A DNA stretch of 44,560 nucleotides, taken from NCBI GenBank assembly GCA_040753555.1, contig JBFMDZ010000004.1:1-44560 (forward strand), in the 5' to 3' direction. Below are positions 2,630 through 34,660 of the stretch, in pieces (within the stretch, counting starts at the first letter, position 1; every line of letters starts with the position of its first letter). The position numbers and the translations under genes are program-made. Source of the stretch: a bacterium (lineage in GTDB: Bacteria > UBA9089 > UBA9088). Under the pieces are notes generated by a model. It made no database searches. It saw only the letters and a list, made by a program, of their open reading frames with translations, and was not told where the DNA came from.

Positions 2630-2877
2630 CTCATTTTCCGCTCTTATTTACAATAGGAATTGAATTTCCAAAAAAAATCTAAAGTTTAACCCTCTTAAAA
2701 ACCGATATATATAATAGATAGAATGATAGAAGATATTTTAAGAAGACAAAATCAAGTTTTTCTCCAAAACAATTGGCTCTTTAGTCATTCTTAAGATAAG
2801 TTCTTGATAAGATGAATATTGCAGAGATTATTGATAATATTTGTCCAGCAGATAAACAACAAATAGTAAGTCAATGA
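2630..2877 (+). pseudogene. Truncated, frameshifted IS1634-like left end and transposase 5' remnant
   Basis: Inverted copy of 1-122. ATG at 2723 with an extra base (TTAAGAAGAC versus TCAGAAGAC in the other copy) and a second frameshift. Homology appears to stop at the permease start codon. Confidence 0.6.
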
Positions 2878-3875
2878 TTAAGAAATTTTTTGTTTTGATA
2901 TTTGTAGGCTTAATAGCAATTCTTCTAATAACCCTCATTTCTTTGTGTATTGGCTCATATTCCATTTCTTTAAATAAAATTATTCAAGTAATCCTTGACG
3001 GAAAAAGGACAACAGAACATACAATTCTCTTTGATATAAGGCTTCCAAGAGTAATTCTAGGGTTTGCTATAGGTTCGTCATTAGCCTTATCAGGTGCAAT
3101 TCTTCAGGGATTATTTCGTAATCCCCTAGTTGAGCCATATACATTGGGCATATCTGGAGGTTCTGCTTTGGCTGTTTGTTTAAGTATTGTTCTTTCCTTA
3201 AGCCTTCCCCTTCCATTAAGCGGATTTCTTGGAGCTAGCTTTATTATCTTTATTCTTTATTTTTTATCAGCAAGAAACAGAATAGTAAGCCTTCCCTCCC
3301 TTCTGCTTCTTGGTGTAATGATAAGCTTTATATCAGGGGGTCTAATTATGCTTATTATGGCCATATCAAAGCATGAAGACCTGCAAGGGATTATCTTTTG
3401 GATAATGGGCTCATTAGAGGAGCCAAACTGGTCTTTTATTAACCTTGCCTTATTTTCCTCAATAATAGGGCTTTTTATCTCATTTTTCTTTTCGCAATCC
3501 CTTAATGCCTTTTGCCTTGGTGAGGAGAAGGCATTAAATCTGGGTATAGATACAGAGAAGACAAAAAAGGTTCTCTTTCTTATATCATCCCTTCTTGTAG
3601 GATTTTCTGTCTCTGTTTCTGGGATAATTGGGTTTGTTGGTTTGGTTGTTCCTCATATAGCCAGGTTTATATTGGGATGGGATTATAGATTTCTTCTTAT
3701 CTCATCCTGGCTTTTGGGTGGAGGATTTCTTATCCTTTGCGATACAATAGCAAGGACAATCATTGCTCCATACCAGCTACCTGTTGGCGTAATTACAGGC
3801 ATAATTGGAGGTCTTTTATTTAGCTATTTTTTAATAAGAAATGATAAAGGTAGAGGGCATTTTTTGTGGTTATAA
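2874..3875 (+). CDS. FecCD/BtuC-family ABC transporter permease (cobalamin or iron chelate)
   Basis: IRLPRVILG, LQGLFRNPLVEPYTLGISGG, GIIGFVGLVVPH and LPVGVITG. Confidence 0.93.
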   Translation: MIKKFFVLIFVGLIAILLITLISLCIGSYSISLNKIIQVILDGKRTTEHTILFDIRLPRVILGFAIGSSLALSGAILQGLFRNPLVEPYTLGISGGSALAVCLSIVLSLSLPLPLSGFLGASFIIFILYFLSARNRIVSLPSLLLLGVMISFISGGLIMLIMAISKHEDLQGIIFWIMGSLEEPNWSFINLALFSSIIGLFISFFFSQSLNAFCLGEEKALNLGIDTEKTKKVLFLISSLLVGFSVSVSGIIGFVGLVVPHIARFILGWDYRFLLISSWLLGGGFLILCDTIARTIIAPYQLPVGVITGIIGGLLFSYFLIRNDKGRGHFLWL

Positions 3876-4608
3876 TGAATTTTCCCTTTCTGATATAAGC
3901 TTTAATGTAGAAAGAGGTGAGATTTTTGGAATAATTGGGCCAAATGGAAGTGGAAAGACAACCCTTTTAAGGGCTATAAGTAAGGTAATCCCATTAAAGA
4001 AGGGTAGGGTGGTATTTGAAGAAAAAGATATTAGAAAAATGGGATTTAAAGAATTTGCAAAAATGACAGGGGTAGTTTCCCAGATTGAGGAGATTGCCTT
4101 TGATATGAGGGTAGAAGACCTTGTTATGCTAGGAAGGATTCCACATCAAAGGTTTCTCTTTACAACAAAGAAAGATACAGAGGTTATAGAAAAATCAATG
4201 GAAATAACAGGGATAATGGATAAAAGAAAAAAGTATATCAGCAAATTAAGTGGAGGAGAGAGGCAACTTGTCTTTATTAGCAGGGCTTTGGCTTCTTGTC
4301 CAAGGATTCTTCTATTGGATGAGCCTACAACCCATCTTGATATAACCCATCAAATAGAAGTTTTAAACCTTGTAAGAAAATTAAACAAGGAGATGTTCCT
4401 TACAGTAATCATTGTCTTGCATGACCTAAATCTAGCATCTGAATATTGCGATAGGCTCATTTTGCTTTCAGGGGGAAAAATTTATAACATTGGAAGCCCT
4501 GAAGAGGTCTTAACATATCAAGCAATAGAGGATGTATATAAAACAAGGGTAATAGTAAGAGAAAACCCAATGAGCCACAAGCCTTATGTATTTCTGGTGT
4601 CAAAGTAA
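3841..4608 (+). CDS. ABC transporter ATP-binding protein (BtuD/FepC-like)
   Basis: Walker A GPNGSGKT, signature LSGGERQ, Walker B LLLDEPT and VLHDLNLA. Confidence 0.95.
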   Translation: MIKVEGIFCGYNEFSLSDISFNVERGEIFGIIGPNGSGKTTLLRAISKVIPLKKGRVVFEEKDIRKMGFKEFAKMTGVVSQIEEIAFDMRVEDLVMLGRIPHQRFLFTTKKDTEVIEKSMEITGIMDKRKKYISKLSGGERQLVFISRALASCPRILLLDEPTTHLDITHQIEVLNLVRKLNKEMFLTVIIVLHDLNLASEYCDRLILLSGGKIYNIGSPEEVLTYQAIEDVYKTRVIVRENPMSHKPYVFLVSK

Positions 4609-6360: not shown

Positions 6361-6876
6361 ATGCTTCAGGTCTATACAGGTGATGGAAAGGGAAAGACTA
6401 CATCTGCTTGTGGACTTGCAATAAGGGCAATAGGGCAGGGTATGAGGGTATGCTATATCCATTTTCATAAAGACCCCGAAAAATATGGCTACGGAGAGAT
6501 AATGGTATTGGAAAAATTGGGTGTGGATATTTATGGCTTCGCAAAAAAGCACCCATACTTTGATAAAGATGTGAAAAATAAGGAGATACGCAATGAATGT
6601 TTAAGTGGTTTAGAATTTGTAAAAAAGCTTTATCAAGAGAATAAATATGATGTGCTTATTTTAGATGAGATAATTGTCTCTTTAAGGGATGGATTTATAA
6701 AAGAGGCAGAATTTTTAGAAATATTGGAGAAAAAGCCAGAAAATTTAGAGCTTGTCCTTACAGGAAGGGACTTTCCAGAAAACCTAATTGAAAATGTAGA
6801 CCTAGTTAGTGAGATAAAAAACATAAAACATCCCTTTGATAAAGGAATAAAAGGAAGAAAAGGGATTGAATTTTAA
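6361..6876 (+). CDS. cobO: Cob(I)yrinic acid a,c-diamide / cob(I)alamin adenosyltransferase (CobO/BtuR)
   Basis: QVYTGDGKGKTT, LILDE, ELVLTGR, DLVSEI and KHPFDKGIKGRKGIEF. Confidence 0.93.
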   Translation: MLQVYTGDGKGKTTSACGLAIRAIGQGMRVCYIHFHKDPEKYGYGEIMVLEKLGVDIYGFAKKHPYFDKDVKNKEIRNECLSGLEFVKKLYQENKYDVLILDEIIVSLRDGFIKEAEFLEILEKKPENLELVLTGRDFPENLIENVDLVSEIKNIKHPFDKGIKGRKGIEF

Positions 6877-7039: not shown

Positions 7040-8032
7040 ATGTATTTTTATATCCAATGGCACATTACCGACAGATGTAATCTTCGCTGTCTACATTGCT
7101 ATCAAGAGCAATTTAGCGCTTCAAATGAATTGCCTTTCTCAAAGTTAAAGTTAATCTCTGATAATCTAATTTCTAGCTCAAAACTTTGGAATAAAGGCTT
7201 AAAAATTGCCCTAACAGGTGGAGAGCCCCTCCTTAAACCAGAATTATGGGCTTTGGTTGATTACCTTAAGTCTTTTAATACAAACTTAAACCTCATTAGC
7301 AATGGTACCCTGGTAAGTAAATATATTTCAGACATTAAGCATAGTGGATTAAAAGAGTTTTATATTTCCTTGGATGGAATTACAAAAGAAAGCAATGATA
7401 GTATTCGTGGCAAGGGTTCATTCAAAAAGGCAATTGAGGGGATTGAAGCACTAAAGTCACAAAGTTTCTCGGTGGTGATTATGTTCACCCTGCTTAAGCG
7501 TAATCTCCCAGAGGCAATGGAATTATTTGGTTTTGCTAAGGAACTTGGGATTGATGGATATATTATTGAGCGATTTTTCCCTTTAGGCCAGGGAAAAAAA
7601 TATCTTAAAGAAGTGGTTTCAGGAAAAGAACTAAACAGCCTCTATCAACATATTTTTAAACAGGTTGGTGAAATATATGTGCCTTCTGAAATGGTCAAAT
7701 ATCGGGCTATTCGTGTAGAATTTGATAATAAAATCCAATTATATGGGGCAGAATGTATTGCTGGTAGGGATGGTCTGGCAATCCTTCCTGATGGCACTGC
7801 CCTACCCTGCCGAAGGTTTAACCTAACTGTTGGTAATCTTTTAGAAAAGCCTTTAACTGAGATCTTTGAAAAATCAGAGGTGTTAAGAAAGATTGTAGAC
7901 AAAAAGAATTTTAAGGGTATATGCAATGAGAAAAAATGCAAGATTCCTGATTGCTATGGCTGTCGGGCAATGACTTTAGCAATTAGCGGTGATTATTTAG
8001 CTCCTGACCCCCATTGCTGGGTTTATATGTAA
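7040..8032 (+). CDS. Radical SAM/SPASM-domain protein
   Basis: CNLRCLHC (CxxxCxxC), LTGGEPLL, ISLDG, and a SPASM cysteine array CIAG..LPC..C..C..CYGCRA..DPHC. Confidence 0.93.
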   Translation: MYFYIQWHITDRCNLRCLHCYQEQFSASNELPFSKLKLISDNLISSSKLWNKGLKIALTGGEPLLKPELWALVDYLKSFNTNLNLISNGTLVSKYISDIKHSGLKEFYISLDGITKESNDSIRGKGSFKKAIEGIEALKSQSFSVVIMFTLLKRNLPEAMELFGFAKELGIDGYIIERFFPLGQGKKYLKEVVSGKELNSLYQHIFKQVGEIYVPSEMVKYRAIRVEFDNKIQLYGAECIAGRDGLAILPDGTALPCRRFNLTVGNLLEKPLTEIFEKSEVLRKIVDKKNFKGICNEKKCKIPDCYGCRAMTLAISGDYLAPDPHCWVYM

Positions 8033-21603: not shown

Positions 21604-23217
21604 TTATTCTTCATAAGTATCTGGAAGGTCGTTTTCAAATAGAATGCAATCTCCTGGTTTAATTATCTTCTCAAGCTCTTTTTGTGCCATTTCAAGGCTA
21701 TGGACAATGATAATATTTTTCTCTTGAAATCTTTTTTCCATCAATCCATCAAAGATAGGCTTTGTTCTTTTTTCTCCTACAAGGATAACGATATCACAAA
21801 CATCTGCTGCTTTCTTTCCAAATTTTTTATTTTCTTCATACTCCTTTATTCCAAGCTCAATCATCCCAGGTGTTACAAGGATTTTTCGTCCTTTAAACAA
21901 AGAAAGGCAAGATAAAGCCTCATCTACCCCAACCGGATTTGAATTATAGCTATCATCAAGGACAAAGACATTATTTGGATTCCTTATCAATTGTAAGCGA
22001 TGGGGGATAAAGGAAAGCTCTTCTATTGCCTCTTTTATCTTTTTAATCTCTATTCCAAGCTCCTTTGCTACAGCAATCCCTGCTAATATATTTGAAACAT
22101 TATGCCTTCCCAAAAGCCCTGTCTGAAACATTGTTTCTCCAACCCTAAATTTTATCCCGGAGACATCCATCTCAACATCCTCTGCCATAATTATCCCTTC
22201 AGACTCCAGACTCCTGACTCCCGACTCCAGACTCATTCTATACCCCACTTTCTTTATCTTCACCTCATTCATAAGCCCCTTACAAACCTCATCATCATTA
22301 TTAACAATAGCAATTCCAGAAGGGGGTAAAGACAAAATAATCTCAAATTTTGCTTTTTTAATATTTTCAATTGTTTTAAACCTTTCTAAATGCTGAATTC
22401 CAATGCCTGTTAATACACCGATTTTTGGCCTTACCAATTTACAGAGCTTCCTAATATCACCCCTTTTATATGCACCCATCTCAACAACAAATACCTCTTC
22501 ATCTTTAAGCTCATTGTTAATTACCTTGCATACACCCATTAAGGTATTATAGCTTTCTTTTGTAATAAGGGTTTTGTATTTTTTTGAAAGGATATGTCCT
22601 ATGATGTGTTTTACAGATGTTTTTCCATAAGAACCTGTTATTCCTATTACCATTGGCATTAATTTTTTCATCTTATTTCTAGCCTTAATAAGATAGAAAA
22701 GATTAAAACCTTTCTCAATTGGAAATAGAAATATGTTTGTCAATATAAGGTTTATTCCAGCAATTTGAATGAATATTTGAAGGATAAGGAAATATAAAAG
22801 AAAAAGGGATGATGTAAAAAAAGCGATTACTGATAAAGGTATTAGGGGTATTAAAATAGAAAATACAATTAGCCTTTTTGCCCTTGCTGTCCAAACAAAC
22901 GGTTTTTTTTGCTTTTTTCTTTTACACCTTTTAAAAAGCCATATTCCAGAACCTATCCAGAGGATGAGAAATATAATTCTAAGATTAAAAGATTCAAGGA
23001 ATAAGCCAATGAAGAAAATGATTGCTCCTGATACAAATGATTCGCTATCAAAGGCCCTCTTTGGATTCTTAATAAGCCATCTTGCAAACCTTTTATTCCT
23101 ATATCCCTCAAGCTGGAAAATGTGGAGTAATGTATTGGTTTGAAAGACAAAACGTCTTAACCACAAAAAAATGGCAATGAGGATTAAAAGCTTATTTAAA
23201 AAAATCCAAGATTGCAT
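21604..23217 (-). CDS. murF: MurF-like Mur ligase with an N-terminal membrane extension
   Basis: GITGSYGKTSVK, SYNTLMG, VEMGA, GIQHLE, DDSYNSNP and TPGMIELG. Start codon uncertain. Confidence 0.8.
   Translation of the reverse strand: MQSWIFLNKLLILIAIFLWLRRFVFQTNTLLHIFQLEGYRNKRFARWLIKNPKRAFDSESFVSGAIIFFIGLFLESFNLRIIFLILWIGSGIWLFKRCKRKKQKKPFVWTARAKRLIVFSILIPLIPLSVIAFFTSSLFLLYFLILQIFIQIAGINLILTNIFLFPIEKGFNLFYLIKARNKMKKLMPMVIGITGSYGKTSVKHIIGHILSKKYKTLITKESYNTLMGVCKVINNELKDEEVFVVEMGAYKRGDIRKLCKLVRPKIGVLTGIGIQHLERFKTIENIKKAKFEIILSLPPSGIAIVNNDDEVCKGLMNEVKIKKVGYRMSLESGVRSLESEGIIMAEDVEMDVSGIKFRVGETMFQTGLLGRHNVSNILAGIAVAKELGIEIKKIKEAIEELSFIPHRLQLIRNPNNVFVLDDSYNSNPVGVDEALSCLSLFKGRKILVTPGMIELGIKEYEENKKFGKKAADVCDIVILVGEKRTKPIFDGLMEKRFQEKNIIIVHSLEMAQKELEKIIKPGDCILFENDLPDTYEE
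22200..22234. repeat. Five-unit 7-mer array inside murF (CAGACTC-type)
   Basis: CAGACTC CAGACTC CTGACTC CCGACTC CAGACTC, encoding SLESGVRSLES. Confidence 0.85.
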
Positions 23218-23923
23218 TTGAGAAATCAAAAGAATTGTCAAGATAGCAAAAGTGTCCTGCATTTTTTATAACAACCAGCCTTGAGTTTTTTATTCCTTTA
23301 TTCATTATCTTTGCTTGATAAAGGGGGGTTTGATCGTCATTTTCTCCCCAGATAAGGAGGGTTTCTGCAGAAATTTTAGAAAGAATGGGTTTTATGTCTT
23401 CGTTAACTATCTTTACCAATGTATCTCTCATTTTACCCGCCTCTTTGTAATCCTTTGAACCTATTTTTTGATAGACCTTTTCCTTTAATGCTTTAGGCAA
23501 AAGGTATTTTGCTATTTTTGCTAGGAAAACCTTAAGATAATAGGCTGGCTTCCTTTTTGGCTTAATCCCTGAGGGAGAAATAAGAACAAGCCTATTTATT
23601 AGCTCTGGATTATTGGAAGAAAGCCATATTCCTATCTTCCCGCCAAATGAATGACCGATTATGTTTATTCTTTTAATTCCAAAATTCTCAAGGAATTCCT
23701 TGATAAATAATCCGTAATCAGATGTTTGCCAGGCTAATTCTGGAATCTCACTCCTTCCAAAACCAGGCAAGTCAAGGCTATAAACACAAAATTTTGTCTT
23801 TAGAAGGTCAAATATAGGCTTTACCGATTCTCTCCTTCCTCCCCAGCCATGGAGGATTAAAATAGGCTCTCCTTCTCCATCTTTCTCGTAGTATGTCCTT
23901 ATTCCTTTTGCTTCTATAAACAT
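23192..23923 (-). CDS. Alpha/beta hydrolase
   Basis: LHGWG, DLPGFG, nucleophile elbow GHSFG, WGENDD and AGHF. Confidence 0.92.
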   Translation of the reverse strand: MFIEAKGIRTYYEKDGEGEPILILHGWGGRRESVKPIFDLLKTKFCVYSLDLPGFGRSEIPELAWQTSDYGLFIKEFLENFGIKRINIIGHSFGGKIGIWLSSNNPELINRLVLISPSGIKPKRKPAYYLKVFLAKIAKYLLPKALKEKVYQKIGSKDYKEAGKMRDTLVKIVNEDIKPILSKISAETLLIWGENDDQTPLYQAKIMNKGIKNSRLVVIKNAGHFCYLDNSFDFSNAILDFFK

Positions 23924-24993
23924 TGTGAAATGGGCTTAAGAAAAAAAGCCTCCTCAAAAGATTTAGCAGATAAAAATTTCTTTTTTAATCCCTCATAAGG
24001 AGGGAAAGCTCCCCCATAGCCAATAACCCTTCTTGCTTTGGCTACCATTTCAAGTTGCTCTTCCCTCCAGCAAGGAGAAACATAAGTATTCTTTTCTCTC
24101 GGCTCAAGTGGTTCATATCTCATCGGATAGCTTATTACTCCCCAGTCAATGAGGTCTTGTAAGCGATTTAAAAATGTCTCTGGTGTATCCTTCTCAAAGG
24201 GATTATTATACAAACAATAGACCAATATTTGCCTCCCATTAAAACCTGCTTCTTTTAACAGGTCAATTGCACGCTTTAGAGGCTCTCTAATTCCTTGCGT
24301 ATCATAAGCAAGTCTAATAAGGGGAATCTTTAATCTTTTTAGCCTTGAGATAACCTTTAAGTTTATCAGCCGAGCATCTATTCCTTGATTAAAATCTATT
24401 TCTAGATTGGATTCCTCAAGCTCTTGAAAAATGTCTTCCCAATAATAAGAGGCAAGGATATTGTTATCCCAGAGGATGACCTTTTTATGCCCTGGATAGA
24501 CCAAATGCCTTATGGATTTCTTTGGTCTAAATTCAGGCTCTAATACCCTGACTGAACAAAATGGGCAATTTCTTATGCAACCACGAGATGAGAAAACTAT
24601 ACTTGCCTTCCATTCAGGAACAAGGGAATAGTCAGGTAAAATATCTTCTGCCTCCTCACATAACCCTTTATGTATCCTAATTCTATCCCCAAAGGCTTCT
24701 TTTAAATGGTCTCCACACAATGTCGCATAAATACCTCCTACTGTAATCTTTGCTTTTTTATATTTCTCTAAATAGTATCTGATAGTTTGATGGACAGGCT
24801 CATAGGCATAGGTAAAGAGGCTTGTAATATAGATTTTATTGGGATAAAACCCATCATTATCAAACCCCCTTACAAATCTCACTTTGTCTTTTCTTTTTTT
24901 ATGATAAGCAGCAAGCTTAAGAAGTCCCAAAGGAGGGTATTGGGTGTGGTATCTTCTTGATTTTTCAGGTTCAACCAAAAGAATTTTACTCAT
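23914..24993 (-). CDS. Radical SAM protein with an N-terminal cobalamin-binding-like domain
   Basis: YPPLGLLKLA..ITSLFT..GGIYATL, SRGCIRNCPFC, DNN and DFNQGIDAR. Confidence 0.85.
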   Translation of the reverse strand: MSKILLVEPEKSRRYHTQYPPLGLLKLAAYHKKRKDKVRFVRGFDNDGFYPNKIYITSLFTYAYEPVHQTIRYYLEKYKKAKITVGGIYATLCGDHLKEAFGDRIRIHKGLCEEAEDILPDYSLVPEWKASIVFSSRGCIRNCPFCSVRVLEPEFRPKKSIRHLVYPGHKKVILWDNNILASYYWEDIFQELEESNLEIDFNQGIDARLINLKVISRLKRLKIPLIRLAYDTQGIREPLKRAIDLLKEAGFNGRQILVYCLYNNPFEKDTPETFLNRLQDLIDWGVISYPMRYEPLEPREKNTYVSPCWREEQLEMVAKARRVIGYGGAFPPYEGLKKKFLSAKSFEEAFFLKPISQCL

Positions 24994-27900: not shown

Positions 27901-28214
27901 TCCCTTCTAATAAGCCCATCTATGTAGCCCTCTAATTGGGAGATTGCATTTTGATTTACTGGATAATCGTTATTTTGCCTCAATTTTCCAGGCTCTTTAT
28001 ATTCAACCACCAATCTATTATAGACCGCATCTGCCCTGCCATTGATGAGAGTATATTCTTCCCTTAAATTAAGGCTTAAATTTATCCTTCTTCCAAAATC
28101 CTCTATTAGTTGGGTAATCTTGGTTCTAAATTCAGCCTCATTATTTGAGGATTGAGCGGCTCTTTGAATCTCTTTTGCAAAAGATGGGGCAGAGGATTTT
28201 ATCTCCTTTTCCAT
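24990..28214 (-). CDS. Fused Type IIG restriction endonuclease / N6-adenine methyltransferase (Eco57I/BpuSI-like)
   Basis: N-terminal PD-(D/E)xK-like GRADAVYNRLVVEYK, GEYYTPDWLA, motif I VLDPACGSGTF, motif IV GNPPW and a C-terminal TRD-like region. The ATG overlaps the herA TGA. Confidence 0.88.
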   Translation of the reverse strand: MEKEIKSSAPSFAKEIQRAAQSSNNEAEFRTKITQLIEDFGRRINLSLNLREEYTLINGRADAVYNRLVVEYKEPGKLRQNNDYPVNQNAISQLEGYIDGLIRREHHKPERLAGVVLDGDYFIFIRKKEGLWHIDNPIRVNEYSTEHFLKLIFSLSTELALIPENLVRDFGENTNVSRKVVGSFLSSLISTEHPKPKALFEQWSLQFSEVCDYEEAGKIKIEQYARRFGISSQNIRAFPFFFCLHTYYAILIKLLAVQVVQYYAMPRLGTDLKQATTLGNNELLGYLKKMEGGGIFKELGISNFLEGDFFGWYLDAWNDEIYQSLKTLISNLANYSLVTLDVDPDTTRDLLKKLYQQLIPRELRHNLGEYYTPDWLAERLLYILMGKETSPDKRVLDPACGSGTFLVIAIKKMREYALEKPIPENMVLEKILSNVVGFDLNPLAVISARTNYLLALGDLLAYRKDEINIPVYLCDSIMTPQEGRDMFTEKTLRFNTAVGPFAIPKSLIKAQYIDELSNFLEEAVNLNLNRGQFIERLCQRLPLNPEQDERDIDVVCQLYEKLLNLKREDINGIWARIMKNAFAPLFVDEFDYVAGNPPWVNWESLPEGYRLETKPLWVKYGLFPHGGMDTILGKGKKDISMIMTYVAIDKYLKKGGKLGFLITQSVFKTAGAGQGFRRFQLGNIPIQVLHVDDMVELNPFEGASNRTSIVILQKGKPTKYPLPLGAYLYWRKTAKRKSISLEATLEEALGMTERKQFVAEPVNADDITSPWITGRPKALRAVKKILGQSDYTAHAGCYSGGANGVYWVEIIDKRPDGLVIVSNITEGAKREVEAVQAAIEQDLLYPLLRGRDVKRWKAEPSAYIIMAQDPVKRRGIEEDKMKTSYPKTYMYLKRFEELLRKRRARGVTDMIKGGAPFYTMFAVGDYTFAPYKVVWPNIASEIVSAVISAKDGKLILPQHIVTLVACNSLKEAHYICAIMNSEVVNFSLQAYSMKGGKSFGDPHVLQNIHIPKFDHKNTLHLSLAKLSEKAHEETAQGNPASEIEAKIDELSAEIWGLTKEELKEIEISLKELSK

Positions 28215-29872
28215 CAAAACTCCTGTTGTCTAAATGCTGGCTTTGGAAAAACAATCTTAACTGGCTGGCGATAAACAGCATGGCTTAACAACAATTCTCC
28301 CTTTGATAGCCTTGTAACATTGGATTTTATCTCTGTATCTAAAAATCTGTAATCGGGTTGAAAGACCTCCGATGAGCCACTACGACCTACAACCTTTGTA
28401 GCACAATTACCCGTTACCCTTTCATGGACAGCACTCATAAACTGCTGAGCAGAGATAAGGATTATACCAAGTGAACGTCCACGCTCAGCAATCTCAAGAA
28501 CTAACTCGGTAAGAGGAGAAGGACGAGGACCAGAAGGGGCGTATTTGTTTAACTCATCCACAAAAAAGATTACCTTTTCAGGGACAGGCTTTCTCCTATC
28601 CTCAGGTGGTTCTGCCTTTAAGGAATAAACAGATTTTAGCAAATCACCAAAAACAAGCATCTGCTCATGCTCATAGAGCTTAGTAATATCTACCACATAG
28701 ACATTGCCACCCTTGATTTTTAGCATCTCCTCCCCAAGGGATTTTTCCCGAGACGCCCTTGCATCAACAAATATTCCAGATTGTCCAGTCCTCACCATTC
28801 GCCTTATATGTCTTCTAAAAACACCAATAGAAACCCCTTTAATACCCCGCCATTCTTTAACCGCGGCTCTGGTTTGAGGGTCAAACAAGGGAGGGCCATT
28901 AAGAAGGTTTTCCCAGCTATGAACATCCCTAAAGCCTGGTTCATTATTTCTAATCCCCTCTTTAATCTCGCTTACAATTGATTCTAATGTAGCATAAGCA
29001 TCGGGTATATGGGCAAATAGTAAATCAAGTTTGTCTGAGGTTGAAGGAAGGTCATAGGCATAAGTCTCGTAAAAATTTGGTTCTAAAAAGCTATTTGGTA
29101 AACCAGTTTTTCCTCTTGGAAGCCAGTAGTGAACCTTATCAGAGGGAAAAGGCTCTGGAGTCAAACCAAATGCCTCCCACATCTCCATTTCAGAAACACT
29201 AAATGTTCCCTCCCTCCTTTGGTCTATCTGTAATAAATCCCCATGCTTGACATTAAGAAGAATTACAGCAATCCTATCCTTTTCATCCTCGGGTGTTTTT
29301 TGTAGGATTGATTGGATAAGAAACATCGCATAGGATGTCTTTGTAGCCAAGCCACTTATTCCTGATATATTTACATGGGCAGATTCTGGGCCAAGAATGT
29401 ATCTTCTGTCAACATAAGCAATGGCAGACGCACCATTGCTCATCTTAATAAGCCCAGCAGGAATTCGGTCTTTCGGCTTCATTGTATCTATTCCAAGGGC
29501 AACCTGGATGCCTTCCTCATCTGCAAACCTCACAATCTTCTCGCTTGAAACAGGCATATAGATGTCTTTATCATTGCTCAATACATTTGCATAAGCCACA
29601 TTTGTTCCTTGACGAGGGGTATTAGGGTCTTCGGTTAATTCTCCAAAATTGCTAGAGATGAAATTGGCAAGATGGGCTGGCGAGTCTGTTTTATGCTCCA
29701 AGATTGTTACCAACCCAAATGTCTTGCTCTTTCCCTCATGGCTTGTTTGTTCAACCTCTACTATATCAAAGGGGTTGACTATAACCTTTGGGGCAAGCCA
29801 AAAGATAAATTTATCAGATGTATTTGGCTCTTTCTCTGTGGCAGATGTTTTACCAATCTCTTGATTACTCAT
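28214..29872 (-). CDS. herA: HerA-family ATPase/translocase
   Basis: N-terminal HAS-barrel-like region, variant Walker A ISGISGLATKTS, Walker B FFVDELNKY and ERGRSLGIILISAQQ. GGAGG SD and ATGA overlap with nurA. Confidence 0.88.
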   Translation of the reverse strand: MSNQEIGKTSATEKEPNTSDKFIFWLAPKVIVNPFDIVEVEQTSHEGKSKTFGLVTILEHKTDSPAHLANFISSNFGELTEDPNTPRQGTNVAYANVLSNDKDIYMPVSSEKIVRFADEEGIQVALGIDTMKPKDRIPAGLIKMSNGASAIAYVDRRYILGPESAHVNISGISGLATKTSYAMFLIQSILQKTPEDEKDRIAVILLNVKHGDLLQIDQRREGTFSVSEMEMWEAFGLTPEPFPSDKVHYWLPRGKTGLPNSFLEPNFYETYAYDLPSTSDKLDLLFAHIPDAYATLESIVSEIKEGIRNNEPGFRDVHSWENLLNGPPLFDPQTRAAVKEWRGIKGVSIGVFRRHIRRMVRTGQSGIFVDARASREKSLGEEMLKIKGGNVYVVDITKLYEHEQMLVFGDLLKSVYSLKAEPPEDRRKPVPEKVIFFVDELNKYAPSGPRPSPLTELVLEIAERGRSLGIILISAQQFMSAVHERVTGNCATKVVGRSGSSEVFQPDYRFLDTEIKSNVTRLSKGELLLSHAVYRQPVKIVFPKPAFRQQEF

Positions 29873-31020: not shown

Positions 31021-31509
31021 TTATTTTGCCAATTTTTTAGCAAGCTCTCCTACCCTCATTCCAAGCTTTTTTGCATCATCCAGGTCTTTTTGGCTAGGGC
31101 TTCCAGAACAGGCAACGCCATAATGGCCACCGGAAGATATAGGGTCTCCAACCACAATCATTCCATAGATTAAGAATGCATGGATAATCGCCAGCATTGT
31201 TGTCTCCTTTCCGCCACTTGGATGGCCAGATGTGGTAAATGCCGCACCTATTTTTCCCTCCATCCCACCGGCCCTTCTTAAGGAAACAAACCTTTCAAAC
31301 ATATCCTTCAGTTCCGCGGTCATATTCCCAAAGTATGTTGGAGAGCCAGCAATTATCCCATCTGCCTCTTTAAAATCTCCATCAACAACATCGGATACCC
31401 TTTTTATAATGCAGGAGCAACCCGAGCTTTCTACCCCTTCCTTAACAGCCTTTGCAAGACGCTCTGTATTTCCCCCATAAGATGAATAGGCAACCAATAT
31501 CTTTATCAT
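31021..31509 (-). CDS. Flavodoxin/WrbA-like NAD(P)H-dependent FMN oxidoreductase
   Basis: YSSYGGNTERLA, GSPTYFG and AFTTSGHPSGGKE. Confidence 0.9.
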   Translation of the reverse strand: MIKILVAYSSYGGNTERLAKAVKEGVESSGCSCIIKRVSDVVDGDFKEADGIIAGSPTYFGNMTAELKDMFERFVSLRRAGGMEGKIGAAFTTSGHPSGGKETTMLAIIHAFLIYGMIVVGDPISSGGHYGVACSGSPSQKDLDDAKKLGMRVGELAKKLAK

Positions 31510-31512
31510 AAT

Positions 31513-31929
31513 TCACCTCCTTTCCTGTATTTCTGATAGAAATCTTAACCAAACCACTGGAATCTTATTAGCTAAATCACTTATTTGTGCTTCTTCAAGC
31601 ATAAAGCCATATGCATAAATGAAAAAGTGTCTAAAGGTTAAGCATTCATAAAGCTTAATGGATAAGCCTTCTGATATAATCCCCTTTGACACTGGTGTAT
31701 TTAATATATCTTTATGCCATGCATCGGATTTATGGATTTTAATATTCTTTTCCTGTAAAATCTGTTTTAAGATATTTTCTATTCCATTATAAATATTGTG
31801 AAGGAAGGTAGCTATAGCAGATAGCTCAATAACTAATTTCTCTTTTCTTGCCATAGTATCAGAAAGATTGCCCAATGCTATTTCTACATTCTCTTTTTCT
31901 GCAAGGATTCGTTTGGATATATTATCCAT
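31513..31929 (-). CDS. HEPN-domain (HepT/DUF86-like) protein with a degenerate RX4H motif
   Basis: LHNIYNGIENIL, WHKDIL and FRHFFIYAY. Its start overlaps the MNT stop. Confidence 0.85.
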   Translation of the reverse strand: MDNISKRILAEKENVEIALGNLSDTMARKEKLVIELSAIATFLHNIYNGIENILKQILQEKNIKIHKSDAWHKDILNTPVSKGIISEGLSIKLYECLTFRHFFIYAYGFMLEEAQISDLANKIPVVWLRFLSEIQERR

Positions 31930-32191
31930 AAATCTTTATTCCAGTCTCTTCTACAAGCTCATTAAATAGGGACTTTTTAGATAAATCTAACAGGTCAACA
32001 GGCTTTGATAAGGACTGAAATAGTTCAACGTAAAATTTAAAAAATAGCCTTGGCTCAATCCCCTTTACAGCAATATCTATATCATCAAATTCTTTATCCT
32101 CTTTTATAGAAGACCCAAATAGAATAATAGAGGAAACATTATACTTCTTAGCACATTTCAAGATTATATTCCTATCTTTTTCTGTTATCAT
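31922..32191 (-). CDS. Minimal nucleotidyltransferase (MNT/MntA-like antitoxin)
   Basis: ILFGSS....DDIDIAV and PVDLLDL. Start set to the ATG at 32191. Confidence 0.88.
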   Translation of the reverse strand: MITEKDRNIILKCAKKYNVSSIILFGSSIKEDKEFDDIDIAVKGIEPRLFFKFYVELFQSLSKPVDLLDLSKKSLFNELVEETGIKIYG

Positions 32192-32200
32192 TAAAGACAA

Positions 32201-32230
32201 AGTATAAGGCAACAAAGATAAAAATAGCAA
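32201..32230 (-). promoter_or_regulatory. Candidate promoter TTGCTA-18-TATACT, 9 nt before the MNT ATG
   Basis: Hexamers read directly. Confidence 0.45.
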
Positions 32231-32555: not shown

Positions 32556-33794
32556 TTATATCACCTCTATACTTTGGTTTCTTTCCTTTCCTACAGAGAC
32601 AAGGGAAATTGGAATACTTAAAGCATCTTTTAGCATTTCAATATAATCCCTTGCCTCTTTTGGAAGATTGTCATATTTCTTTATATTTCTTATATCCATT
32701 TCCCATCCAGGGAATTCTTCATATATTGGAAGAATGTCATCCCAGCTGACAATTGATTGTGGAATTTCATCGTAAATTTTATCCTTTATTTTATATTTTG
32801 TGCAAACCATTATTTTAGAAAGGCAATCCAAAACATCAAGCTTTGTTATGGCAATGCTGGTTATCCCATTTATTTTACAGGAATATTTAATTGCTGGTAA
32901 ATCAAGCCATCCACACCTTCTTGGTCTTCCTGTTGTCGCACCATATTCCCTTCCCTTTTCTCTTAAGGATTCACCCAGATCTCCCTTTATTTCTGTGGGA
33001 AATGGACCCTCTCCAACCCTTGTAGAATATGCCTTCATCACACCAATGACATTTTCTATATACCTTGGAGGAATCCCTGTTCCGGTTCCTATCCCTCCAA
33101 TTGTAGGGTTTGTTGATGTTACATACGGGTATGTTCCAAAATCAATGTCCAAAAGGGTTCCTTGTGCTCCCTCAAACAATATGGATTTTCTTTTCAAGAT
33201 GGCATTCTCTAAAAGAACCCTTGTATCACAGACAAAATCTTTTATTTTATCAAAGAATAAAAGGTATTCATCTATAATTTTATCTGTCTCAAAGCCCTTT
33301 AAAGACTTTTGAGTAAGGTTTTCTATAACCTTTTCTTTAAATACATTTCTATCAAGCATATCAGCTATAACAATTCCGCATCTTGCTACTTTGTCTGTAT
33401 AGCAAGGACCAATCCCCCTCTTTGTTGTTCCTATCTTTTGTGTTTTCTCCCTTATTTCATCTATTGCAATATGGTATGGCATAATGAGATGGCACCTATA
33501 GCTTATATGAAGATTTAAGTCAATCCCCTTCTCTTTTAAAAACCCTATCTCATCTAATAATATTGCTGGATTTACAGCAACACCATTCCCAATAACGCAA
33601 TGCTTATCTTTATAAAGGCATCCAGATGGAATAAGATGGAAGATAAATTCTTCGCTGGAAACAGAAACAGTATGGCCTGCATTGTTTCCACCCTGAAATC
33701 TGACAATATAGTCATAATCTTTTGATAAATAATCAATTATCTTTCCCTTTCCCTCATCTCCCCATTGAAGCCCAATAATAGCTAAATTTTGCAT
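32556..33794 (-). CDS. purA: Adenylosuccinate synthetase
   Basis: QWGDEGKGK, QGGNNAGHT, GTTKRGIGP, EGAQG and GATTGRPRRCGWLD. Confidence 0.97.
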   Translation of the reverse strand: MQNLAIIGLQWGDEGKGKIIDYLSKDYDYIVRFQGGNNAGHTVSVSSEEFIFHLIPSGCLYKDKHCVIGNGVAVNPAILLDEIGFLKEKGIDLNLHISYRCHLIMPYHIAIDEIREKTQKIGTTKRGIGPCYTDKVARCGIVIADMLDRNVFKEKVIENLTQKSLKGFETDKIIDEYLLFFDKIKDFVCDTRVLLENAILKRKSILFEGAQGTLLDIDFGTYPYVTSTNPTIGGIGTGTGIPPRYIENVIGVMKAYSTRVGEGPFPTEIKGDLGESLREKGREYGATTGRPRRCGWLDLPAIKYSCKINGITSIAITKLDVLDCLSKIMVCTKYKIKDKIYDEIPQSIVSWDDILPIYEEFPGWEMDIRNIKKYDNLPKEARDYIEMLKDALSIPISLVSVGKERNQSIEVI

Positions 33795-34660
33795 CTTATT
33801 TTTTGTGCCAATCTTTCTCCAATTTCAATTGGATTATCGCCTTCCTCCCCTTCCATAATCATTTTATCTAAAAATATACATCCTTTAAGGATAATTTTGC
33901 TATTCTTTATTTTTGCCAACGCACCAATTCCAGACTTACAGCCTAGCCCAAAAAAAGACATAAATGACCTTTCTGCTTTAATGCAGACATCAGATTCCTT
34001 ATCATTAAGGAATGTTGTTAAAGCCTCAAGCCTCTTATCATCTTCTCTTATTTGTATTCCAAGTGAACCTTGACCTGGTGCAGGAAGCAGGATGTCTTCT
34101 GGAATTATTTCTGAAATTAAATGGGAAAGGGAAAGCCTAATTAAGGCAGCTTCAGAAACAATAATTGCATTAAGCTTTCCATCCTCTACCATTTTAAGTC
34201 GGGTAGTAATATTTCCCCTTATATCAACTATATTCAGGTCTTGCCTTGCTACTTGAATAGCCAATTTCCTCCTTATACTTCCTGTTCCAATCCTTGCTCC
34301 CTTTGGAAGAGAAAACAATTTCATTTTATCCCTTGAAACAAGCACATCATAAGGAGATATCCTCTTTGTAACAGCAGAAATCATCAATCCTTGACTCCTC
34401 GCTCTCTGACTCTCTGACTTTCTGACTTCTATCGGTATATCCTTCATAGAATGCACAGCCATATCAATATTCCCTTTTAATAATTCCTCCTCAATTTCCT
34501 TAACAAATATGCCTTTTTCTTCAAATTCCTGTAGGGGTTTTAAAAACCTATCAGCAGATGTCTTAATTTTTTTAATAGAAACATCGTCATTTATTCTCTC
34601 TGCTACTTCTTGTGCCTGAATAAAGGCAAGCTTGCTCCCTCTTGTTCCTAAGATAATCAT
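33782..34660 (-). CDS. hemC: Hydroxymethylbilane synthase (porphobilinogen deaminase)
   Basis: GTRGSKLA, AVHSMKD, IRGNITTRL, PAPGQG and AERSF...GC. Confidence 0.92.
   Translation of the reverse strand: MIILGTRGSKLAFIQAQEVAERINDDVSIKKIKTSADRFLKPLQEFEEKGIFVKEIEEELLKGNIDMAVHSMKDIPIEVRKSESQRARSQGLMISAVTKRISPYDVLVSRDKMKLFSLPKGARIGTGSIRRKLAIQVARQDLNIVDIRGNITTRLKMVEDGKLNAIIVSEAALIRLSLSHLISEIIPEDILLPAPGQGSLGIQIREDDKRLEALTTFLNDKESDVCIKAERSFMSFFGLGCKSGIGALAKIKNSKIILKGCIFLDKMIMEGEEGDNPIEIGERLAQKIRCKI
34390..34429. repeat. Five-unit 8-mer array inside hemC (CTGACTYT-type)
   Basis: Encodes VRKSESQRARSQ immediately after HSMKDIPIE. Confidence 0.75.

Follow-up and report, generated by a model that had tools for sequence, protein, structure and literature searches.

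A radical SAM enzyme as a recurrent shared component of putative modification-restriction-like systems, and its place in a cassette with NurA-like, HerA, and type IIG proteins

What does a radical S-adenosylmethionine (rSAM) enzyme do beside a nuclease, a DNA translocase, and a restriction enzyme? The question is raised by a stretch of 44,560 nucleotides from a bacterium of the lineage UBA9089; UBA9088 (GenBank assembly GCA_040753555.1, contig JBFMDZ010000004.1), which is denoted in its full length as the window and harbors the gene for the rSAM protein P0001 (Table 1). In an initial annotation, P0001 was regarded as a cobalamin-binding-like rSAM enzyme with a shortened class B-like N-terminal domain, coupled to a DNA methyltransferase and possibly engaged in DNA hypermodification. 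The analysis presented here shows that the gene is the fourth and last of a mobile cassette encoding a NurA-like nuclease, a HerA translocase, a type IIG restriction-modification (RM) enzyme, and the rSAM protein, and that members of its family occur, with few exceptions, either in phages or in operons of DNA-targeting conflict. Multi-gene systems of modification-restriction-like logic comprise Dnd, Pbe, Dpd, BREX, and DISARM; new here is a radical SAM enzyme as a recurrent shared component of such systems. No paper describing the P0001 family was found, its library name being 'radical SAM domain protein' only, and the literature searched holds no description of type IIG enzyme, HerA-NurA, and radical SAM protein as one conserved cassette.

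Judged from its sequence and a structural model, P0001 is an intact, active-looking radical SAM enzyme, and the family to which it belongs is large and unnamed. The rSAM core located by the initial annotation is borne out: the CX3CX2C cluster motif reads GCIRNCPFC (C139/C143/C146), and its three cysteines are invariant in alignments of 20 and of 83 homologous sequences, down to ~30% identity. Both strings quoted at that time are present as well, YPPLGLLKLA at residues 19-28 and GGIYATL at residues 86-92. Further invariant positions of the 83-sequence alignment are G86, G87, P120, G138, V148, E152, D176, N177, N178, D200, F201, N202, Q203, D206, and D231. A second conserved cysteine set does not occur in this alignment, and methylthiotransferase and SPASM/twitch types are therefore excluded. 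A very confident AlphaFold2 model built on 83 homologues (predicted local distance difference test, pLDDT, 96.9; predicted template modeling score, pTM, 0.92) predicts a Rossmann-like N-domain that is short and contains four strands (residues ~3-105); the barrel comes next, with the chain stopping ~60 residues past the latter. The top seven Foldseek matches in the PDB are all radical SAM enzymes, headed by MtaB (9a6d; E-value 4e-10, template modeling (TM) score 0.63), and the best two-domain neighbors are MtaB, AprD4, MiaB, CysS, and TokK (E-values 4e-10 to 1e-6, TM ~0.6).

Sequence profiles place the protein less directly. The Pfam model Radical_SAM (PF04055) is generic and the family divergent; P0001 reaches 23.5 bits against a cut-off of 29.5, and among its relatives one attains 29.7 bits and several fall just short (28-29.4 bits). 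The hidden Markov model (HMM) of phrog_9298 matches P0001 with an E-value of 3.1e-72, residues 15-342 being aligned to profile positions 9-303 of 305. No NCBIfam family was found for P0001, only BchE at E 0.0099, and no family of PADLOC-DB v2 (viperins included) at E<=0.01. A sequence search of the PDB yielded chance matches only, and a fold search of BFVD led to phage proteins with the generic label 'Fe-S oxidoreductase / radical SAM', which tell nothing about function.

The assignment to class B fared less well. With the cobalamin-dependent class B methylases TokK (7kdy) and CysS (9n1d), P0001 has in common that a Rossmann-like N-domain precedes the CX3CX2C barrel (E-values of 2e-7 to 1e-6 in Foldseek, TM ~0.6), but its N-domain is much shorter (~105 amino acids (aa), four strands), it lacks a C-terminal domain, and it stays below the cut-off of the B12-binding model PF02310 (17.1 versus 32.1 bits), which is exceeded by its homologue in locus L015 (36.7 bits). 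The non-cobalamin enzymes match equally well or better: MiaB/MtaB (7mjz, 9a6d) and AprD4 (6fd2) are the closest structures (E 4e-10 to 5e-8) and show the same two-domain layout, the substrate of MiaB and MtaB being a nucleic acid (tRNA) and that of AprD4 an aminoglycoside. P0001 differs from MiaB/MtaB in that the three N-terminal auxiliary-cluster cysteines are missing, the N-domain holding only C93, which is not invariant among the 83 sequences, and in that a TRAM domain is absent (no Pfam match). Since the structural neighbors encompass cobalamin enzymes (CysS, TokK), auxiliary-cluster enzymes (MiaB, MtaB), and one with a cofactor-free B12-like domain (AprD4), the fold is silent on a possible cofactor of the N-domain. 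The short Rossmann-like domain of the initial annotation is thus recovered in the model, and the dependence on cobalamin and the class B methylation attached to it are unsupported, as they go back to a sub-threshold domain match. The B12 uptake genes, CobO, and HemC adduced at that time do exist in the window but are unrelated neighbors; they lie 9-20 kb from the rSAM gene in other transcription units and are uninformative on P0001. CobO and the BtuCD-like genes may indicate that the host is able to handle corrinoids.

The four cassette genes are coupled in translation and are transferred jointly across phyla. The stop codon TGA of the IIG gene overlaps the rSAM start codon in the sequence ATGA (24990-24993), with AAGGAA upstream (read from the minus strand); the HerA stop codon overlaps the probable ATG of the IIG gene in TGATG (28212-28216), with CAGGAG ahead; and the stop codon of the NurA-like gene overlaps the probable HerA ATG in another ATGA (29869-29872), with AAGGAGG ahead. 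The coupling to the IIG gene, on which the initial annotation relied, is therefore real, but the IIG enzyme is not the only coupled partner, given the HerA/IIG and NurA/HerA overlaps and the abutting flavodoxin-like and hydrolase genes, the former of which ends 3 bp ahead of the NurA start.

The closest known counterparts of the partner proteins are type IIG RM enzymes of the MmeI/Eco57I-like kind and the HerA-NurA pair of D. radiodurans (7f6d). P0002 matches the PADLOC family PDLC03630 (type IIG restriction endonuclease-methyltransferase) over its full length (residues 7-1074, E=0) and contains the Pfam domains N6_Mtase, Eco57I, and TaqI_C, methylase motif I (DPACGSGTFL), motif IV (NPPW), and an N-terminal D63...E72-x-K74. 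In a single polypeptide, it thereby unites an N-terminal nuclease, a gamma-class N6-adenine methyltransferase, and a C-terminal target recognition domain (TRD). Ten cassette copies of the protein all retain DPxCGSGTFL, NPPW, D63, and E72, and K74 is not conserved. In this putative nuclease motif (residues 63-74, encoded at 27996-28031; D63...E72-Y-K74), the majority consensus of the ten copies has E at the lysine position, and the catalytic layout of the IIG subfamily may, as far as its sequence tells, be unusual. P0005 matches HerA of 7f6d (E 2.6e-39), its matches to PADLOC mad8/HerA being weak. The only sequence match of P0006 is a weak one to NurA of 7f6d (E 0.07); its homologues stand beside HerA in 20 loci and are always HerA-paired in related cassettes, and that of Marinitoga camini virus 1 is annotated as a Rad50/Mre11-associated exonuclease.

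For the recurrence of this arrangement, genomes and metagenomes were scanned for related loci, and the four window proteins were compared by BLAST with crude longest-open reading frame (ORF) gene calls in 250 loci. At least nine independent contigs from several phyla (L172, L173, L174, L176, L178, L180, L184, L053, and L058, the last with HerA, IIG, and rSAM split into pieces) carry NurA, HerA, IIG, and rSAM in this order, with 0 to 3 extra genes ahead of rSAM; in these complete copies, the four proteins are 52-81% identical. L008 shows HerA-IIG-rSAM and is truncated by the contig end, and incomplete copies come from contigs that are short or broken (L007, L048, L170, L181, L213, L221). Hosts that could be named include Omnitrophota, Nitrospirota, Thermodesulfovibrionales, and Dehalococcoidales. 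The copies are 52-82% (rSAM), 51-73% (IIG), 64-85% (HerA), and 59-81% (NurA) identical to the window proteins. The source genome contains a single copy of the rSAM gene, which is missing from its closest relatives searched (two genomes of the same genus, one of the same family, and three of the same order) and matched in 6 of 60 related genomes. The flavodoxin-like, NurA, HerA, and IIG genes have GC contents of 0.40-0.44, the rSAM gene of 0.369, and the whole window of 0.352.

Where the rSAM protein is at least 59% identical to P0001 and the context suffices, an IIG gene is present in 13 of 18 loci; the remaining ones carry ParB_N together with a 503-aa protein or an SNF2/ParB-like set (L010). 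The methylase that the initial annotation named as partner thus holds for this sub-clade but is not a general partner of the family, in which the link to HerA-NurA is deeper. In several relatives, genes for a 467-aa protein, DUF3800, or HNH intervene between IIG and rSAM, which are directly joined in the window. The intervening protein of ~465 aa (L172:6801-8201, L173:7616-9004, L002:6619-8001) has no match in Pfam, PADLOC, or the PDB. A common origin of the 467-aa insert gene and the 503-aa gene of the ParB_N-type loci was considered and rejected, as the two proteins share no similarity; neither matches the PDB or PADLOC.

HerA-NurA is the deeper association of the rSAM gene, compared with IIG, and holds from 31 to 100% rSAM identity. 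Direct triads of HerA-NurA and rSAM without IIG occur in L188, L196, L190, and L243, and convergent ones in L019, L204, and the temperate Marinitoga camini virus 1 (rSAM 50% identical). In six further loci without IIG (L069, L070, L071, L082, L238, L244), NurA-HerA lies upstream of rSAM with an intervening gene, which encodes a GHKL ATPase in L069, L070, and L082. The rSAM proteins of these IIG-less loci are 31-54% identical to P0001. Such a link would be expected if the enzyme repaired or processed DNA together with HerA-NurA end resection, in the manner of spore photoproduct lyase and outside defence: HerA-NurA is a DNA-end-processing pair (7f6d), its connection with rSAM is the deepest of this branch, and spore photoproduct lyase, cited in PMC8989533, is an instance of DNA repair by a radical SAM enzyme. 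A repair enzyme of this kind is nevertheless considered quite improbable, because the rSAM gene is patchy and mobile, the cassette is absent from close relatives, HerA-NurA is not near most family members, and the co-occurring genes are IIG RM, GHKL, DndB/DpdB, PbeA/PbeC, Schlafen/AlbA_2, HNH, DUF3800, and toxin-antitoxin genes.

The wider family was assessed by a profile search of 1.84 billion representative proteins, which retrieved 1,367 clusters (50% identity) at E<=1e-30 and 3,670 at E<=1e-10. The family extends over bacteria and archaea and is found on plasmids as well as on phage contigs, the latter numbering in the hundreds. Among 124 operon partners from ~67 genomic loci, the most frequent Pfam domains are HATPase_c_3 (17), DndB (12), Helicase_C (8), SNF2-rel_dom (6), and ResIII (6), followed by SMC_N/AAA_23 (4), N6_Mtase/Eco57I (3), and Mrr_cat (2); a Pycsar-type TIR, SocA/Panacea, and a D12 methylase are single cases. 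In 102 of the 121 cellular loci whose context extends over at least 6 kb, a DNA-conflict partner lies within five genes of rSAM. The groups counted were GHKL ATPase, ParB/DGQHR-like, DndB/DpdB-like, HerA, NurA, IIG, SNF2, PbeA, PbeC, and AlbA_2, the labels denoting BLAST clusters seeded by few annotated representatives. One gene order is given by the RefSeq annotation of a plasmid of Rhizobium leguminosarum: two hypothetical genes, a DEAD/DEAH helicase, a ParB N-terminal protein, DGQHR, radical SAM, and an ATP-binding protein. Some family members (P0174, P0179, and the plasmid match H38, LC711081.1) contain inteins (LAGLIDADG, Intein_splicing); the usual sites of inteins are genes of replication, repair, and nucleotide metabolism.

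This survey comes close to refuting the view that P0001 is an ordinary metabolic enzyme (for a cofactor, a lipid, or a secondary metabolite, a small-molecule class B methylase being one version) that merely happens to lie beside an RM gene. Genes of biosynthetic, metabolic, or lipid pathways were found beside rSAM in none of ~190 loci with context. Homologues mostly in metabolic or lipid surroundings were the pattern named in the initial annotation as contradicting its proposal; the operon partners belong to DNA-conflict families instead. With the cassette conserved across phyla, a single genomic copy, and near relatives devoid of rSAM, a metabolic function appears very improbable, for all that generic COG1032-like or B12-binding-like domain matches and the cobalamin salvage genes elsewhere in the window could be read in its favor.

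One cellular context deserves closer comparison. A cassette of PbeA, PbeC, AlbA_2 (Schlafen-like), rSAM, and a DpdB/DndB-like protein was found in ~20 loci from Bathyarchaeia, methanogens, and bacteria (among them L034, L046, L049, L050, L200, L202, and L207), with PADLOC E-values of 4e-225 for PbeA, 5e-130 for PbeC, and 1e-26 for DpdB. Its conserved members include neither a methylase nor a DndC or DndC-sized gene. The characterized PbeABCD system depends on the phosphorothioate mark set by DndCDEA, more than half of the PbeAC pairs are 'solitary', and a pairing with other modifications has been proposed (PMC6459918; PMC10853773). By its position next to the DpdB/DndB-like protein, the rSAM gene of these cassettes occupies the place of the modification module in DndCDEA-PbeABCD and Dpd (DpdA/DpdB) (PMC6459918; PMC10853773), and the logic is the same, with an NTPase that handles DNA, an enzyme that modifies it, and either a nuclease or a helicase. 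The difference lies in the absence of DndA/C/E, DpdA, and preQ0 genes, the putative modifying enzyme being a radical SAM protein. PbeA and PbeC are absent from the window, where the partners are NurA-HerA and the IIG RM enzyme.

Phages represent the second large reservoir of the family. In IMG/VR, 511 of 566 candidate stretches encode rSAM relatives, mostly of ~290-310 aa and ~30% identical, and viral relatives match phrog_9298 with E-values of 1e-40 to 3e-100; 17 INPHARED records carry such genes, among them Bacteroides, Clostridium, and Methanomassiliicoccales phages. Partner types known from cells are near rSAM in 11 of 68 viral loci, the usual phage setting being a stand-alone gene in a replication/modification module, e.g. 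between RusA and the terminase in phiCT453B. Among 140 de-duplicated genes within two positions of rSAM, the commonest PHROGs are DNA methyltransferases (phrog_498 five times, phrog_67 three times, phrog_757, phrog_363, and phrog_3008 twice each; raw counts, not enrichment), followed by ParB-like proteins, PAPS reductase, helicases, primases, and polymerases. A connection of the family with phages and methylases, as suspected in the initial annotation, is upheld by these loci and by a fusion of a C5 methylase with rSAM. The phage M6 isomerase gp53, which takes part in thymidine hypermodification, is described as the first radical SAM enzyme shown to help install a DNA modification (PMC8989533). 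It is likewise phage-encoded, but it resembles spore photoproduct lyase and has no N-terminal Rossmann domain, and the genes of its pathway (5-hydroxymethyldeoxyuridine / aGPT-Pplase / pyridoxal phosphate enzyme) are absent at the rSAM locus.

Fused proteins give a further hint of the substrate. P0145, an intact ORF of 777 aa on a 175-kb Thermodesulfovibrionales contig, combines a C5 cytosine DNA methylase (PF00145; residues 25-345, E 5e-57) with an rSAM protein of the P0001 family (residues 405-763, E 3e-113), and in P0261 the rSAM part (residues 229-621) is followed by motifs from the C-terminal segment of a C5 methylase. The other long C5 methylases retrieved along with P0145 were considered as additional rSAM fusions and rejected, as they are tandem methylases; the fusion is therefore rare. 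In P0133, rSAM is joined to a homologue of the ParB/DGQHR-like neighbor cluster (E 4e-89), and this C-terminal extension has no PDB match. In addition, a sub-group of rSAM proteins of 670-820 aa (P0189, P0197, P0198, P0210, P0248; L073, L084, L086, L098) shares a C-terminal extension of ~370 aa that matches no family; in L073 and L084, the long rSAM gene lies downstream of genes for 1151 and 629 aa, respectively.

A fusion to a ParB-like neighbor and tight translational coupling would also be seen with an enzyme-substrate pair, and the substrates of many radical SAM enzymes are indeed proteins or peptides. Even so, P0001 has little chance of being a maturase that modifies or activates its partner protein: the partners are too diverse and unrelated for a single protein substrate, the phage copies usually lack all of them, and P0001 contains neither a SPASM/twitch auxiliary-cluster domain nor conserved extra cysteines.

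Many different sensor-like partners are, on the other hand, a typical pattern of a shared effector. The rSAM protein might thus serve as an effector or back-up arm that, upon infection, produces a nucleotide which is toxic or terminates chains, in the way of viperin, or damages nucleic acids, with the partner ATPases and nucleases sensing the invader. Radical SAM enzymes of anti-phage defence that act on nucleotides are known in the form of the prokaryotic viperins (pVips), which are stand-alone or kinase-paired and use nucleoside triphosphates; P0001, however, has no sequence or PADLOC match to them, and its domain layout differs by the N-terminal Rossmann-like domain. Guanylate_cyc occurs in two operon partners of rSAM, and a neighborhood of PAACC cyclase, HSP90-type ATPase, and Radical SAM is mentioned in one line among putative effector contexts of a 2026 preprint (10.64898/2026.10.19.760177). 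The cassettes are, in contrast, already provided with nucleases (NurA, IIG endonuclease, PLD, HNH, Mrr), stand-alone copies in the replication/methylase modules of hundreds of phage contigs fit toxicity poorly, and a C5 DNA methylase as fusion partner suggests that the substrate common to both is DNA. An effector function is thus possible but rather unlikely.

A DNA-directed role of P0001 is well supported by context: DNA is the likely target, since the relatives are found almost only in DNA-defence operons and phages. From the contexts, the fusions, and the analogy to known systems, it is tentatively proposed that P0001 acts on DNA as a modification or marking enzyme that separates self from non-self, a reading held with slightly less than even confidence. 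A DNA-handling partner would deliver the rSAM protein or give it access to DNA. In the window, this would be the IIG enzyme, HerA, or both, and in other loci a GHKL ATPase, an NTPase of the ParB/DndB/DpdB-like kind, or an ATP-binding cassette (ABC) ATPase resembling DndD. As DNA-handling NTPases or base-flipping enzymes, these partners could expose the rSAM target, comparable to DpdB for DpdA and DndD for DndC. The 5'-deoxyadenosyl radical would then be used to install a DNA mark or to process it further. A cell would thereby flag its own DNA as exempt from the nuclease and translocase encoded alongside, and in phages a stand-alone rSAM copy would protect the phage DNA. Hypermodification of IIG-methylated sites, as put forward in the initial annotation, is one possible chemistry among several.

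Several points weigh against this proposal. The sites of the IIG enzyme are already methylated by this enzyme itself, which leaves no obvious need for another protective mark; the rSAM protein may hence work for the NurA-HerA arm or act further on the methylated base. The genes inserted between IIG and rSAM in relatives could mean two adjoining modules instead of one machine, and the phage copies could be prophage-borne defence genes, not a means of self-protection. The methylase fusions P0145 and P0261 were each seen once, on a single contig, and are hence suggestive rather than statistical. The basic isoelectric point (pI) of the family (median 9.1, above 8 in 83% of the members) is weak evidence for a role on DNA.

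In the immediate surroundings of the cassette (Table 1), the flavodoxin-like gene has a GC content of 0.444, which is island-like and the highest of the region, and its product may act locally as a donor of electrons to the rSAM cluster; homologues of this gene and of the HepT and MNT genes are not found in other cassette loci. The alpha/beta hydrolase P0003 and the next, Mur-ligase-like gene have no counterpart among the 250 related loci, and P0003 is probably a flanking host gene. The Mur-ligase-like protein comprises the middle and C domains, its MurF subfamily score lying under the cut-off, and its first ~190 residues are replaced by a strongly hydrophobic, membrane-like region; the gene overlaps that of the hydrolase by 71 bp. 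Just upstream of the cassette lies a HepT-like/MNT toxin-antitoxin pair, followed by purA. L003, a locus with ParB_N, the 503-aa protein, and rSAM, also shows an MNT/HepT pair upstream and an adjoining purA (PurA 48.8% identical), for which either an island hot spot common to both or mere chance may account. Near the CobO and FecCD/ABC transporter genes, the window encodes another radical SAM protein, which has a SPASM domain and is unrelated to P0001.

Table 1. Positions of the rSAM gene, its cassette partners, and other genes of the window
Feature	Position	Strand	Basis or remark
FecCD permease	2874-3875		B12-related
ABC ATPase	3841-4608		B12-related
CobO	6361-6876		B12-related
Second radical SAM protein, SPASM domain	7040-8032	+	Unrelated to P0001
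Mur-ligase-like protein	21604-23262	-	Middle and C domains
Alpha/beta hydrolase P0003	23192-23923	-	Overlaps the rSAM end by 10 bp
Radical SAM protein P0001, 359 aa	23914-24993	-	ATG start; Pfam, alignments, AlphaFold2 model, phrog_9298-type family
Type IIG restriction endonuclease-methyltransferase P0002	24990-28217, probable ATG start 28214	-	PADLOC, Pfam, cassette alignment
HerA-type ATPase P0005	28214-29902, probable ATG start 29872	-	PDB 7f6d match; relatives align from residue 14
NurA-like protein P0006, 382 aa	29869-31017	-	Weak 7f6d NurA match; position beside HerA
Flavodoxin-like protein (FMN_red/Flavodoxin_1)	31021-31509	-	Pfam
HepT-like/MNT (Polbeta nucleotidyltransferase) pair	31513-32230	-	Toxin-antitoxin pair
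HemC	33782-34660		B12-related

To our knowledge, only spore photoproduct lyase and phage M6 gp53 are known as DNA-acting radical SAM enzymes. On a more far-reaching view, which is possible but to be regarded as improbable at present, the rSAM family would perform an oxygen-independent modification of DNA bases or backbone, maybe on 5-methylcytosine or N6-methyladenine that a neighboring or fused methylase has set, and would be the anaerobic equivalent of TET/JBP-type oxidation; phages would evade restriction by it, and at least five cellular defence architectures (HerA-NurA, IIG RM, GHKL, ParB/DndB, Pbe) would use it as a self-mark. With family members on plasmids of the culturable and non-pathogenic hosts R. 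leguminosarum WSM1325 and Novosphingobium aromaticivorans DSM 12444 and in Bacteroides phages, the question is directly testable. If the family does mark DNA, this would represent a new epigenetic chemistry and would provide the missing modification arm for orphan 'restriction-only' cassettes, including the solitary Pbe systems and the HerA-NurA dyads.

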